Shown: positions 38,724 to 64,000 of the stretch, piece by piece
How positions within the stretch are numbered: the stretch's first letter is position 1
Layout of the letters: the number at the start of each line of letters is the position of its first letter
NCBI GenBank assembly: GCA_051294375.1
Contig: CM119269.1
Span: 3,584,690-3,648,689, forward strand
Reading direction: 5' to 3'
Length of the DNA stretch: 64,000 nucleotides
Source: Paraspadella gotoi
Lineage: Eukaryota; Animalia; Chaetognatha
The notes under the pieces: generated by a model
Told to the model about the DNA's origin: nothing
The model's database searches: none
The model's input: the letters and a program-made list of their open reading frames with translations, nothing else
Program-made: the position numbers and the translations under genes

Positions 38724-41700
38724 ATGCCTCGTAAACGCGCCGACACTTCCCAAGCGGCGCCGGGCCACGGTGACGCCCCAAACGCTACTGGCGCCATCGA
38801 CGCCGGCGCCAAGGATAGATCGATGTCGGCGATAACGATTCGACCGACGCCGCCTCAGATTTTCGTCGACTCTTTTCACGCTCCCTCGACTAACGGCGCC
38901 GCGATTGGCAATCACGGCGTCGTTTCCTCGTCTTCATCGTCTCCGGCGCTGTCACCGTCTGTCCGACGCCGCCGAAGCGAAGGGGCCGACGGCGTCGACG
39001 ACGTCCGCCCGCGTCGCCGAAGTTTCGACGCCGCCGCCGTCTCCGACGCTTCCGACGACGAAGAGCGATTCCAGTCGATGCATGGGATCGAGTCGCTGAA
39101 TCAACTGGCGGAAGCGCGGCGGCAGCGGCAGGAGCATCACCGCGGGCAGGACCAGCGGCAGCAGCAGCAGCAATCGCGAGTGGACAGGAGATCGACGAAG
39201 AAATCGAAGCAGCGGACGGAATCCGAGGCCAACTCTGTCTTCTACCTGGAGGAAGACGAGGACGATCGATACAAGAACCTCAAGAACACCAACAGCAGCA
39301 GCAACAACAGCAGCAGCAACAACAGCGGCGTCAACGAAGATGGAATCGGAAGCAAAGACGAAGCGAAACTCTTGAAAATATCGGCGGTGAGAGAATCGTT
39401 GTTGTTGTTGTCGTTGATTCCTTGGTTCTGTCGATGCCGACGAAACAATTAAACATTATCGAAACGGCGGTAGATGGATTGCGCCCATGTAGCGATTTGG
39501 CCCACTTTAATCACTGCGGGCGCAATTTCCTGTGCGCTCATAACTTATCACAACAATCGCATCAGTAACTTGTAATTGACGAAACCGAAACGACGCGAGT
39601 TTCACATTCATGCCTTTTGTCTTTTGAGACGATTCCCATTTGATTCGGCGTCGACGACGACGACGACGACGGCGACGACGACGGCGACGATCAACATTCG
39701 AAATGAGGATATTTGTTTGTTTTTGTTGATCGGAATTCGTTTATTGCCTCCCGATGTTGCGAAGGGAAACTTCTACAGGGAAAAACTTGATGAGGATTTA
39801 TGGTGGAAGTTGTTTCCGTTGCTGGTTCACTATGGAAAATATGGGATTGTGTTTTCGAATAGTTTTAGCGATGATATCGTATGTTATACTACTTGCTTTT
39901 TTTGTCCATGTTTGTCGTTATTGTTCTTTTTTTTTAGTTAGCCGTTGTGTTTTTTGTTGGGGCATCTTCGATAGAATCTACGGTTTAAGTTATTTATTAT
40001 TTTATCAGAACTATTCTCTCAGGACTTAACATAAATTAAGAAAAAAATTAGTTGAGGCTTTGAACCCTGGAATTTATCTCCTCTTTTCGAAGCCGTGTTC
40101 CCATAAAATGATGACTCTTGGCGTCAATTTTCTGAGAAAAGCAGGTCGTTGCCTTCTTCTCTGACTCTCCGCATTCAGGAAAGTTGAAATTCGACCGCTA
40201 ATTTATCTTTCTTTGTTATAAAATACAATAGAAATTTTAAAGGCAAAAAATCGATGAAAGAACATTTTTTAAAAATCGTTTTCTTCTTTAGAAGACTGGA
40301 AAATAAGTACGGTTGCTTTTTTTATTCGTAGTCGAAGTGGGAACAATGACTTAATTAAACCTCAAATATCATATTTCTCCTAGTAGATTCGTTCATATTT
40401 CAGTCAATAATATTGTTATATAAAATGTAATTATATAATCTTCACTCTAAGACTCTATCAAAGAAACCTGACTTTGTTCTGGAAATTCAAATTTTTTTTC
40501 TATAAATCCAATTTTTTCCTTTTCGGCCCCAAAGTAAACTCACTTTTAACTTCTGATTAAATCCACAAAAAAATGAATTTAGATTTAAAACTTCTTTTCC
40601 CCCAAATTTCTCTCGCTTCCCTTTCCTCTCCCTTCCTTCGCACTCTCTCTCCTCCCAGACCCTCTCCCTCTGCACCCTCTCCCGCCCCCTTTCCTTTCTC
40701 TCCTTCGGCCAGCGCCAGTCCTTCGTCAAGCACGCGGCTCAACTGACCCTCAGCAACCGAAGTCTCTTCTTCTACGCCAAATCCGCTCGTCAGATGCGAG
40801 GGGACTTTGCGCTCAATCGCATTTTGGTCGTTGAAAATGTCGACGACATGCAGGTCGCGCGGAATAGGTCAGTTGTTGTTGTTGTTGTTGTTTCGTTTGT
40901 CTTTTTTTATTGATTGTTGTCGATATCGTCTATGTACTTTATAATTTTTTTTTTTACCTTTGTTTTCGTTATAGTAGTAGTAATCAGGGAGTTAACTCCC
41001 TAACTATTTAAGTTATTGTAGTAGTAATCAGGGAGTTAACTCCCTAACTATTTAGTTTATTGTAGTAGTAGTCGGGAAATTAACTCCCTAACTATTACTA
41101 CTATTGTCGTTACCGCCATCGTCTTCTTTTTCCTCATCATTTATATGTTCTTCTTTCTCTTCCATTATCTTCGTTGTCGTCGTCGTCGTCGTCTGTTTTA
41201 CTTTGATTGAATTCAGCGTCAGACCGAAAGTAAGTAAATTGTTGTTGTTGTTGTTTTCGGTTTTGTTGTGGTTGTTTGAACGAAAATCAATTTCGGAGTA
41301 AACAACGAATTTCTCTTTCTCTCTCTCTCTCTCTCTCTCTCTCTCTCTCTCTCTCTTCTTGTCTTGTCTCTCTCTCTCTCTCTCTTTCTCTATCTCTCTC
41401 TTCACTCTCTCTCTCGTCTCTCTTCTTCTTCTCAGATTGACGTTTCAAATAGTCTAACTCCACCCTTCCCAAATTTCCGTCATCCTCGGAACGCCACCAC
41501 ACCCACCTCTCCGTCAACACCTCGACCCCCGTCGCCTCTACGTCGTGCCTCACCAGCGGAGAAGAAAGATGGGTGGACGCGTTGAGACGAGCGGCGAACG
41601 GAGGAAGGCGCCGGGTTCCAGCAACGGTTCCATCCGGGAATGCTGGCTCCGGTGGCTCGGCAAATGGTCTTGCTGCGAAATCGTCGACCAGGATTTGGAA

Positions 41701-62700: not shown

Positions 62701-64000
62701 TCGACATTCCCCAGCAGATCCTCAACAGAGGGAAGTCGGCCGTGGAGGCCTTCAAGCGCGCCGCCACGGGAGGGAATAAGCGGACGAATCGGTTGAGGAT
62801 CATGTTGGTTGGGAAGCATCGAGTCGGGAAGACGAGTTTGAAGAAGTCCTTGTTGGGGGAATGCTTCGATCTGAAGGAGCAGAGGACAGAGGGGATCCGA
62901 TACAAAGAACAGGTGAAGAGAGAGGAGAGAGAGAGAGAGAGAGAGAGAGAAGAGAGAAGAGAGAGAGAGAGAAGAGAGGAGAGAGAAGAGAGAGGAATAG
63001 AAATAAAAAAAAAAAGAGAATAAAAGAAGAAAAAAAACATAAAGGAGAAAAAAAAGGAAGGAACCAGAAAAAGAAGAAGAAAAAAAAAAAGAAACGAAAA
63101 GAAGAGAAAGATATTTTTGATTGACGTATCAATCAATCGATCAATCAATCAATCCTATCATTCAGATTCGAGATCTCCATCGACACGGCCATCGATTGGA
63201 AAGTCCAACGAGAGGTCAAGAGCGTCGTCTGCCAACGCCAATACGACCGGGAGATCGCGCGCCGGTGGGTGAGTACGCTGCAGCAGCATCTGGAGAGTCG
63301 GACGGACGCTGAGGAGATGTCGAAGCCGGCGAAGGGAAAGAAGACGACCTTCACCGTCTCCAAAGTGGAGGAGGATAAGTTCCAGGTCAATGACCTCGAC
63401 GAGGTGTACGAGGGACTCGACAAAACGGAGGACAAAGCGGCAAGGTTAGTGATTTGCTGACTAAAGGGACTTGTCTCCCGTTTGCCTGTCGACCATTGAT
63501 GTGCCTCCTCTCTGTCATTTCGTCACGCGATACTCTTGCGATAAACTTAAGAAATAGAAATATTATTTTGTTGTTTTAAACATTCCCATTTTTTCCGCTT
63601 AAATTTGGTTTTCCTCTTCTTTTTCAATATTCAGGATTGAATCCGTTTCTTCTGCCGCGAAATCCACAACCACATCTCCAACGTCAACAACAACGGAAAG
63701 CCTCGACGAGTGCGACGCCCGCCTCGACTCTTCCACAGTCGACCAACCCGAAAGCGTCGAGGGCTTGGACGCCTTCGCCGACATCGACCCCACCCGCCTG
63801 ACCGTCAGACGAGGATCCATGAAGGAACGAAGACCCGCCTTCGCCCTCAGTCTCGAGATCCCGGATCAAATTCAAAAATTCGCTTCGGAAATTTTCAACG
63901 AGGAAACTTACGAGAACGAAACTAAACCGGACAATCTCGTCATGAACATCTGGGACTTCGGAGGAGAATATCTCTACTACTCCACCCACCAGATGTTCCT
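38724..64000 (+). CDS. ROCO-family protein with Tec-kinase-like N-terminus: PH - Btk Zn motif - Pro-rich - SH2 - SH2 - Roc GTPase (continues beyond window)
   Basis: Exons: 38724-39386 (disordered N-terminus; start ATG tentative), 40659-40867 ([21 protein letters not shown]), 41436-41701 ([30 protein letters not shown]; contains 1-nt insertions), 42630-42749 (GCQATW), 45620-45772, 50857-50943 ([11 protein letters not shown]), 51216-51363, 60459-60520 ([15 protein letters not shown]), 61376-61535 (GCFLVRDS), 61923-62102, 62351-62912 (second SH2 GCFIVRQS...SAGLVTRL; Roc P-loop [15 protein letters not shown]), 63166-63444, 63635-64000 ([19 protein letters not shown]). Phases chain consistently after correcting four homopolymer insertions. 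Confidence 0.88.
40970..41100. repeat. ~43-bp tandem repeat (3 copies) containing the palindrome GGGAGTTAACTCCC
   Basis: TAGTAGTAATCAGGGAGTTAACTCCC(C)TAACTATTTA repeated; the third copy is diverged. Confidence 0.85.
42345..42464. other. Assembly gap (120 N)
   Basis: Run of N next to an (AG)n tract, inside the intron that splits the Btk motif. Confidence 1.
43503..43712. repeat. 28-bp AT-rich minisatellite (TTTGTTTTGTTTGATTAAATTTATAAAG, ~7 copies)
   Basis: Tandem repeat visible in the sequence. Confidence 0.95.
45343..45530 (-). mobile_element. Helentron-associated non-autonomous element (HINE/DINE-1-like), copy 2
   Basis: Minus strand reads TTTTTAGTTGCGCCGCGAGTACTCGCGGAGCAACTCTATAGGTCAACTTTTCGGTCGGTCGGTC..., i.e. 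a 5' hairpin plus GTCG microsatellite; matches 25845-26000. Confidence 0.65.
46247..46487. repeat. ~240-bp dispersed repeat, second full copy
   Basis: Matches 34176-34410. Confidence 0.85.
46775..46968. repeat. Composite 37-bp minisatellite (ATTAAGGGGGAGGTGGCGTTGAG + ATTAAGGCGTTGAG)
   Basis: Alternating 23-bp and 14-bp subunits, ~5 copies. Confidence 0.95.
47615..47660 (-). ncRNA. Minimal hammerhead ribozyme in the inverted pLTR
   Basis: Minus strand reads CTGATGA-A-GACTC-GAAATGAA-GAGTC-GAAA-CATGTC: intact core, 5-bp stem II, palindromic minimal stem III (ACATGT) and a GUC cleavage triplet. Confidence 0.8.
50018..50062 (+). ncRNA. Hammerhead ribozyme copy in the direct pLTR (slightly corrupted)
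   Basis: CTGATTGAAGACTCGAAATGAAGAGTCGAAACATGCTG: the same motif with an extra T in the core and an altered cleavage site. Confidence 0.6.
50120..50490 (+). mobile_element. 3' end fragment of a LINE (probably L2/CR1-group ORF2 tail plus 3' UTR)
   Basis: [22 protein letters not shown]...IF..R...F...[10 protein letters not shown], followed by an AT-rich UTR ending GAATAAAAAATAAA; resembles LINE ORF2 C-termini. Confidence 0.55.
51563..59567. repeat. ~8-kb degenerate 8-mer satellite (CATCCCTT/CATCCCTC/CATCCCTA)
   Basis: Continuous, almost G-free plus strand built from CATCC(C)T(N) units, inside the intron 51364-60458. Confidence 0.98.

Follow-up and report, generated by a model that had tools for sequence, protein, structure and literature searches.

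The Tec kinases (BTK, BMX, ITK, TEC and TXK, and the invertebrate proteins P0039, P0012 and P0006) are our comparison set, and their domain architecture is taken from the accessible text of PMC13648279. A gene in a 64,000-nucleotide stretch of DNA from the chaetognath Paraspadella gotoi (the window) resembles them in that a PH domain with a Btk zinc motif, a proline-rich linker and a Tec-like SH2 domain occur in the same order. Unlike the Tec kinases, the gene has no SH3 domain, contains a second SH2 domain and carries a Roc domain in place of the tyrosine kinase.

How does this locus compare with ROCO proteins? In LRRK1/2, DAPK1 and MFHAS1, the neighbors of Roc are LRR, ankyrin or kinase domains, and these proteins are not known to have an SH2 domain or a Btk motif. 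The present gene shares with them, and with Dictyostelium Roco, a Roc G domain inside a multidomain protein; LRRK-like matches fall in the outgroup of our Roc tree. Some Dictyostelium Rocos have PH domains, and the animal ROCO family comprises about forty domain combinations, which makes the fusion less surprising (both from the accessible part of PMC11378527). The closest Roc sequences, with the same pre-G1 helices and a long G2-G3 insert, belong to Neuralized-Roc-COR-Death-TIR proteins (Branchiostoma XP_019640924 and Octopus XP_052830315; also listed for Strigamia and Crassostrea in the accessible part of the PMC5094078 supplement) and to the anemone 'Novel Gene 3' (kinase-SH3-Roc-COR-Death-TIR). 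Unlike the Neuralized group, the gene has a PH-Btk-SH2-SH2 N-terminus; it is known only up to Roc G3, and the grouping is supported at 88/80. An SH2 domain upstream of Roc also occurs in venerid clam models, namely Ruditapes P0184, P0185 and P0206 (SH3-SH2-Tyr kinase-Roc-COR(-Death)) and Mercenaria XP_053408492 and XP_053386594 (SH2-Roc-COR-Death), all of them uncharacterized database gene models. The Ruditapes type is likewise Tec-derived (best PDB match BTK) but retains SH3 and kinase, and the other clam SH2 donors, SHP2/Grb2-like and chimaerin, differ from that of the window.

Exon chain and transcript support

The spliced reading consists of thirteen exons from 38724 to beyond 64000, with GT-AG borders at all 12 introns, and encodes a PH-Btk motif, a Tyr/Pro-rich linker, two SH2 domains and Roc G1-G3 in this order (Table 1). 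Once seven listed indels in the Btk exon are corrected, the frame is open from the ATG at 38724 to G2 across 10 introns. The low-complexity N-terminus had zero homologs in Pfam and protein searches.

Table 1. Exons of the gene model within the window
Feature	Position	Strand	Content	Basis or remark
Exon 1, coding part	38724..39386	+	221-aa low-complexity N-terminus, start of PH strand 1	open frame
Exon 2	40659..40867	+	PH first half	aligns with Tec PH domains
Exon 3	41436..41701	+	PH second half with insert, Btk zinc motif	contains assembly errors
Exon 4	42630..42749	+	last zinc ligand Cys380, acidic tyrosine cluster	phase fits
Exon 5	45620..45772	+	Pro/Thr-rich linker	phase; length arithmetic 417 = 387 + 30
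Exon 6	50857..50943	+	proline-rich motif at Tec-kinase polyproline position	phase and length arithmetic
Exon 7	51216..51363	+	linker upstream of first SH2	matched to loose RNA-contig end
Exon 8	60459..60520	+	start of first SH2	joint 60519>61375, GT..AG
Exon 9	61376..61535	+	first SH2 core, FLVR arginine kept	Pfam SH2 E 3e-8; RNA joints
Exon 10	61923..62102	+	first SH2 end, inter-SH2 linker	joint 61533>61921
Exon 11	62351..62912	+	second SH2 (Tec-like), pre-Roc helices, Roc G1 and G2	stop-free
Exon 12	63166..63444	+	Roc strand after G2, start of long G2-G3 insert	
Exon 13 (runs off window)	63635..64000	+	insert end, Roc G3	Pfam Roc 38-76

Exon 3 differs from the reads by 10 gap letters and three substitutions, seven of the gap letters being the listed indels that open the frame. 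Because the differences are common to all four runs, the frameshifts in this exon are assembly errors. The base at 41642 is absent from the same four runs; the Btk motif reported in the earlier note is present, but its FHPG-CW reading was wrong and is FHPGIW.

No run is recorded as RNA; X4 was provisionally taken to be RNA-derived on the grounds that its contigs show splicing at GT..AG. X5 gives identical contigs and looks like the same data, so the two count as one RNA data set; X6 and X8 yielded unspliced pieces, and X1 and X7 no joined forms. Six of the 12 junctions, including the one that crosses the satellite, are directly seen in this data set, and four further junctions, including that at the N gap, match by exact length arithmetic. 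The RNA check that had been suggested earlier thus backs 10 of the 12 junctions, the joints 62912>63166 and 63444>63635 not being among them. Exon 12 is placed by phase and homology to relatives, and exon 13 by its match to Pfam Roc 38-76. At the 5' end, an RNA contig spans 38335-39385 and joins 40659 at GT..AG; in exon 2, the RNA contig equals the window sequence and runs on unbroken into exon 3. The exon 4 join was inferred by length: the upstream contig has 118 nt to spare, exactly what remains of the 120-nt exon. Further downstream, 30 loose RNA-contig letters before 60458 equal 51333-51362 in exon 7, and the loose end at exon 10 continues into 62353. A mis-join at the satellite was rejected, since a spliced contig bridges the satellite intron; a 13-nt candidate micro-exon (41217-41229) is not included in the X4 contig. 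The RNA contigs support the single gene that had been proposed rather than separate PH/Btk and SH2-Roc genes, the two halves being linked via two contigs and arithmetic, not via one molecule. The exons likely encode one protein.

Domains and their relatives

The raw, frameshifted exon pieces gave neither PH nor BTK in Pfam, and the PH exon alone had zero PDB matches. After the read-supported corrections, PH-Btk scored 62.7 bits (iE 5e-19) on our own profile of eight Tec kinases, a comparison made within the Tec class; GAP1/RASA proteins likewise carry PH-Btk. PH-Btk matched 9 of the 230 collected proteins, all Tec by name or by Pfam architecture, and the zinc ligands His356, Cys369, Cys370 and Cys380 (model numbering) are kept. 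The PH domain and zinc motif of the earlier note, and their Tec origin, are supported by these matches. In a MAFFT alignment with seven Tec kinases, onto which we provisionally mapped K12, R28 and K53, R28 is kept, K53 is replaced by Arg and no lysine stands at K12; unlike in Tec kinases, the PIP3-binding K12-equivalent lysine appears to be lost. These are the PIP3-reading residues of the Tec PH domain in the accessible text of PMC13648279. The Pro-rich stretch seen earlier corresponds to the exon 5 linker and the exon 6 motif. An 11-sequence SH3 profile matched neither the gene model nor any of 2468 six-frame window pieces, with weak sensitivity for short exons.

Pfam detects both of the SH2 domains read earlier, the first at 61285-61536 and the second in exon 11 (E 3e-18), and the SH2 arginines are kept in both. 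The Btk-like character of the second stood in part: its best PDB matches are BTK (59 bits) and BMX (58), with Src-family at 49, and TEC is the best of five class profiles by a small margin (95.5 vs 89.2 for SRC), but the SH2 tree (97 columns, 76 rows; domains covering <65 profile positions left out) has no resolved Tec link (44/67). The first SH2 domain, at 49.9 for TEC and 52.3 for SRC, cannot be assigned to either class. The PH-Btk module and the SH2 domains were likely taken from a Tec kinase.

The second SH2 domain and Roc G1 share one stop-free exon, so that Roc lies directly behind SH2 as claimed earlier, and the reported G1-G3 motifs are kept, with a 1-nt read-through required at G2. 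Roc profile positions 1-37 match in exon 11 (E 6e-5, 23.7 bits), short of the cut-off of 27 because the long insert splits the domain, and positions 38-76 match at 63636-63998 (E 1e-3, also below cut-off). G4/G5, COR and the C-terminal tail would lie past the window end, and 'ROCO' is a provisional label. In the Roc tree (126 columns, 45 rows; 6 of 51 chosen proteins left out for want of a motif match), the window Roc belongs to an invertebrate group with freely exchanged N-terminal domains. It is sister to an 88/81 set holding the Neuralized group and lies outside that group, the placement beside it (88/80) not being starred. The nearest full-length relative is the Branchiostoma Neuralized-Roc-COR-Death-TIR protein, with 50% identity over 115 columns. 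Every tree reference was a match to this gene or to P0069, which makes the sample biased. Some fusions may lack a coupled mechanism, given how often N-terminal domains are captured in the Roc group.

Orthologous fragments P0001, P0231, P0232 and P0262 show 39-46% identity over the SH2 region, and the two tested, P0001 and P0231, form a clade with the window's second SH2 (100/99). In P0154 the same 7-residue SH2 tail leads directly into Roc, and this protein clusters with the window (99/97; 78 columns, 41 rows). The earlier claim that the architecture is unknown holds for PH-Btk with Roc, a combination that did not turn up among the databases and papers searched, but not for SH2 with Roc, which occurs in clams. 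Both Pfam families are present in 5 of 67 relatives of a clam protein; clam gene models include three other SH2-Roc(-COR-Death) types, one of them Tec-derived with the kinase kept, and RefSeq holds a Tec-derived SH3-SH2-kinase-Roc-COR-Death protein. PH-Btk was absent from all 13 clam-type proteins checked. The Roc domains of the clam SH2-ROCO proteins group in a bivalve-dominated clade (100/97) to which the window does not belong, and a common origin is rejected on Roc; an SH2 clade with the Mercenaria type is only marginally rejected (p-AU 0.047). Clams appear to have arrived at similar fusions independently. A long-protein search with the SH2-Roc exon gave one match among 1613 candidates of 323-2000 aa, which is weak evidence of absence. 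ESM Atlas returned short Roc clusters only (0.75-0.77), treated as leads only, and the AlphaFold model from a 4-row alignment (mean pLDDT 48) was not used.

Alternative readings of the gene

On balance, we lean toward a protein in which a probably Tec-derived PH-Btk-SH2-SH2 part precedes Roc and whose likely role is that of a GTPase scaffold recruited by phosphotyrosine, not that of a kinase. As the earlier note described, the window sequence has one base in excess near 62898, in G2, and as written the main acceptor leads to a stop after 917 residues. In one alternative, the gene would encode PH-Btk-SH2-SH2 as a Tec-like adaptor or decoy that lacks a kinase, with Roc truncated by a real frameshift at G2 or kept as an uncoupled passenger. 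DNA runs X1-X3 contain all 53 sampled words of 62340-62910, in keeping with such a decoy; if the G2 base were an error, random sampling would give this full match only ~29% of the time. Against a profile built from 28 Roc relatives, however, the read-through fits best (107.7 bits; an in-frame downstream acceptor gives 100.1 and the sequence as it stands 94.0), and it restores the T-x-G-I-D type motif of 24 of the 28. G3 is intact downstream of the break, the same assembly went wrong by 10 gap letters in a different exon that is likewise flanked by microsatellites, and the SH2-tail/Roc junction is conserved in P0154. We regard the decoy as unlikely, while giving it some weight.

The kinase might instead be displaced past COR, yielding an LRRK-like PH-Btk-SH2-SH2-Roc-COR-kinase protein. 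A kinase domain had no match within the 64-kb window, and a Neuralized domain no significant match in the gene. An RNA contig of 4700 nt extends 2673 nt (about 890 codons) past 64000, which leaves room for the post-G3 part of 8 of the 9 measurable relatives (591-862 residues). The near relative P0070 is a Roc-COR-kinase-ZU5 protein and the clam Tec fusions retain their kinase. Against this reading, the part of P0070 behind G3 is 1154 residues long and would not fit on the contig, although the contig may stop short of the true end, and Death or Death-TIR closes most of the full-length relatives that were scanned. A displaced kinase has a small probability. Smaller still, and in our view slight, is the chance that exons 1-4 (PH-Btk) and exons 5-13 (SH2-SH2-Roc) belong to different transcripts or isoforms, brought together by a graph branch alone. 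Both RNA contigs stop at the exon 4 donor, where the assembly graph thus branches, and the 118- and 30-nt overhangs were matched by length rather than by letter. Yet both lengths are exact, the four inferred junctions are all in phase, contig depths are similar (33, 32 and 49), and the exon 3-4 join is needed for the last zinc cysteine. Each half is independently Tec-like, and the exon 1-2 junction has the same 30-nt overlap, its branch being explained by an unspliced contig.

Origin and meaning of the fusion

The gene is real and apparently an undescribed variant of the domain-shuffling ROCO proteins. The earlier inference of a Tec module joined to Roc(-COR) stands for the Tec PH-Btk and for Roc behind SH2, but SH3 is missing and the first SH2 is unassigned. 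We propose that the 5' part of a duplicate Tec gene became fused to a downstream Roc-COR from the invertebrate group that exchanges N-terminal domains, with SH3 and kinase lost and a second SH2 gained or duplicated. The tandem SH2 domains would dock onto receptor tails or adaptors that carry phosphotyrosine, or onto the acidic tyrosine cluster of the protein itself, and PH-Btk would help to keep the protein at the membrane, probably with less selectivity for PIP3. Clustering would then drive the Roc-COR dimer and GTP cycle; dimer-dependent Roc-COR action is a published model (PMC4104024, accessible part), and this GAD dimer model is itself under debate. The output would come from the C-terminal part beyond the window, most likely COR followed by Death or Death-TIR, the ending of its nearest full-length relatives. 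By analogy, a death-domain output may imply a role in immune or cell-death signaling.

More tentatively, and with more doubt than belief, we suggest a lineage-wide conserved protein in which coincident membrane and phosphotyrosine signals gate the Roc-COR dimer switch and a death-fold/TIR output in one chain, with convergence in clams. If so, it would act in a tyrosine-kinase pathway as an effector whose signal passes through a ROCO GTPase and not through phosphorylation, and would be a natural inducible model for the upstream switching-on of the Roc-COR module, whose activation is still debated for LRRK2 and relatives, whereas SH2 and PH-Btk are well-understood inputs. On four or more separate occasions, invertebrate Roc-COR modules appear to have captured SH2, in a Tec-like form here and as Tec SH3-SH2-kinase, chimaerin-like and SHP2/Grb2-like versions in clams. 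This suggests a repeated wiring of phosphotyrosine signaling to candidate immune switches.

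Exon chain and reading frame

The PH-Btk-SH2-SH2-Roc gene consists of 13 exons on the plus strand, and its 12 introns, which range from 190 to 9095 nt, all have GT-AG ends. The architecture is real and expressed. In the public sequencing run X4, whose contigs we treat as RNA-derived, a 4700-nt contig is spliced at 60519>61375 and 61533>61921, both with GT..AG; the same contig is identical in run X5, and thus the two runs count as one data set. These joints and the Pfam SH2 and Roc matches bear out the SH2-SH2-Roc order that the earlier note had read from the spliced exons. The loose letters of the contig 5' of 60458 correspond to the end of exon 7 (51333-51362), spanning the 8-kb satellite, and those 3' of 62104 to the start of exon 11. 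The satellite itself (CATCCCT type) is absent from the spliced contig. A second X4 contig covers 38335-39385 and is then joined to 40659, and a third (596 nt) proceeds from exon 2 through exon 3 into a further 118 nt, a length that matches exactly what is left of exon 4 (120 nt) on the far side of the N gap. Upstream of 60458, the 4700-nt contig contains 417 nt, of which exons 5-7 account for 387; the remaining 30 nt are presumably the overlap expected of neighbouring contigs in a 31-mer graph. Six of the 12 splice junctions are seen, four are deduced from exact lengths and the other two, both inside Roc, are predicted. We infer that both halves belong to one gene, linked by contigs and exact lengths with no single molecule covering both. 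Given that the RNA contigs end at the exon 4 donor (42749), a second path starts there, possibly a retained intron or an alternative exon. Intron 5 contains decayed coding remnants that lack a Pfam match and lie between inverted repeats of ~500 bp (86% alike); we take them to be retroelement-like.

Features of the window and their coordinates
Feature	Position	Strand
Neuron-navigator-like gene, exons	12782-13367	+
Rh/ammonium transporter gene, exons	28423-31267	-
PH-Btk-SH2-SH2-Roc gene (runs off the window end)	38724-64000	+
Exon 3 (PH second half, Btk motif)	41436-41701	+
Exon 4	42630-42749	+
Possible short exon of the second path	near 43300-43350	
Inverted repeats and enclosed remnants in intron 5	47569-50107	
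Decayed coding remnants in intron 5	~48050-49100	
Exon 7	51216-51363	+
Satellite in intron 7 (~8 kb)	51561-59570	
First SH2 (spread over)	60459-62102	+
Exon 11 (second SH2, Roc start)	62351-62912	+

Exon 11 is free of stops and encodes a complete SH2 domain (Pfam E 3e-18) and Roc profile positions 1-37; positions 38-76 follow in the last exon. Because the full SH2 and the Roc start share one stop-free exon, the SH2-Roc junction is independent of splicing assumptions. In exon 3, all four runs, DNA runs among them, agree on 10 gap letters and 3 substitutions relative to the assembly, and these shared differences are thus assembly errors. With the listed changes, which include 7 of the 10 gap letters individually, the frame is open from the ATG through G2, and the zinc motif becomes FHPGIW...WSCC...GC. 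An extra base near 62898 interrupts G2. On a profile of 28 relatives, read-through scores 107.7 bits, an alternative in-frame acceptor 100.1 and the sequence as written 94.0, and homology therefore favours an error. However, three DNA runs contain every one of the 53 words sampled from this exon, which counts against an error, although such an outcome would have a ~29% chance under random sampling if the base were an error. On balance, the base is rather likely to be an assembly error.

Origin of the PH-Btk and SH2 domains

The earlier note derived the front end from a Tec kinase. The PH-Btk part agrees: in a comparison set without GAP1-family PH-Btk proteins, the corrected PH-Btk scores iE 5e-19 on the Tec profile and matches 9 of 230 collected proteins, all of them named Tec kinases or of Tec architecture by Pfam. 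The second SH2 finds its best PDB matches in BTK and BMX, and the TEC profile ranks top of five by a margin of 6 bits, but in the SH2 tree the domain lies beside, not inside, the Tec group, in a placement without support. The first SH2 is assigned to neither Tec nor another class by profile comparison. The FLVR-type arginine is conserved in both SH2 domains. The note's placement of Roc where the kinase normally sits holds in that Roc directly follows SH2. Searches of the gene model and of the six-frame translation of the window detected neither SH3 nor kinase. Without SH3 and an adjacent kinase, the gene product is not a Tec kinase; it is probably a ROCO protein whose COR lies beyond the window.

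In the accessible part of PMC13648279, K12, R28 and K53 read the PIP3 3-phosphate in the Tec PH domain. The alignment retains R28, with Arg at K53 and no lysine at K12, and PIP3 selectivity is thus probably reduced. The acidic tyrosine cluster of exon 4 could be a phosphorylation site.

Relatives of Roc and parallel fusions in clams

A search of 1.84 billion representatives returned 590 matches; among the best 150, 99 align with Roc, 53 with SH2 and 2 with both. Pfam scans of 64 of these 150 place Neuralized, OTU, C2H2, TAZ, CAP-Gly, TPR, NACHT, HEPN, kinase or SH2 domains N-terminal to Roc, mostly with COR and Death, and sometimes TIR, after it. The closest full-length relative is a Branchiostoma Neuralized-Roc-COR-Death-TIR protein, in a grouping of only 88/80. 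A COR-Death(-TIR)-type tail is predicted for the window gene, and the RNA contig extends 2673 nt past the window, sufficient for such a tail.

Orthologous pieces occur in the database proteins P0001 (both SH2 domains), P0231, P0232 and P0262. Further orthologous sequence comes from P0154/P0004, where Roc follows on the final seven residues of the second SH2; this tail occurs in 2 of 274 collected proteins (P0001 and P0154). The Roc starts of P0154 and of the window gene group together (99/97). Thus, the SH2-Roc junction predates this species. No orthologous piece includes PH-Btk, and the whole architecture is seen in this genome only.

Three other SH2/Roc combinations appear in clam RefSeq gene models: an SHP2/Grb2-like SH2 (P0069, P0165, P0181), a chimaerin-like SH2 (P0150) and, in Ruditapes, SH3-SH2-tyrosine kinase-Roc-COR with BTK as best PDB match (P0184, P0185, P0206), two of the latter three with a Death domain. 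In the Mercenaria/Ruditapes models of the first two forms, SH2 precedes Roc(-COR-Death). The clam SH2-Roc proteins form a 100/97 Roc clade that excludes the window gene, and their fusions are therefore independent of it. The Ruditapes models, as predicted RefSeq sequences, would represent a second, independent Tec/ROCO fusion that retains SH3 and kinase. Further domains found in the clam Roc family are PDZ, HEPN, C2H2, kinase and reverse transcriptase, which suggests that its Roc module repeatedly captures 5' parts of other genes. Elsewhere, P0009 (Sinanodonta, 2018 aa) reuses a Tec-like SH2 with VWA, MIB/HERC2 and WWE and no kinase, and P0002 (Latimeria, 836 aa) repeats SH3/SH2 units (4 SH2, 3 SH3) with no kinase match.

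Proposed mechanism and probable place among ROCO proteins

The gene itself exhibits the domain order and intact motifs; a mechanism can be drawn from Tec biology (PMC13648279) and from the ROCO dimer model, which the available part of a review offers as a suggestion (PMC4104024). Through its tandem SH2 domains, the protein would dock on phosphorylated adaptors or receptor tails, with PH-Btk adding membrane affinity. Clustering could then drive the Roc-COR dimer and its GTP cycle, and the output would come from a tail with a death fold or TIR.

The earlier note knew of no described protein with this architecture. A literature search, with most subscription papers outside its reach, found no published description of SH2+Roc or BTK+Roc proteins, and none of the 230 collected proteins joins PH-Btk to Roc, but SH2 with Roc already exists in the clam models. 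The PH-Btk-SH2-SH2-Roc architecture is apparently undescribed. According to the accessible portions of the sources, animals have up to forty ROCO domain combinations (PMC11378527), ROCO-TIR proteins are noted in Aplysia (PMC9334734), and Roc-COR is treated as a counter-invader core with variable domains (PMC8195603). The available text of PMC5094078 describes anemone kinase-SH3-Roc-COR-Death-TIR and TIR-BTK genes and lists Neuralized-Roc-COR-Death-TIR, with no occurrence of SH2, and the covered portions of PMC12460157 (three PDFs) do not mention these domains. The domain set is a variation on a domain-shuffling ROCO theme, and its precise combination is apparently new by the searches made.
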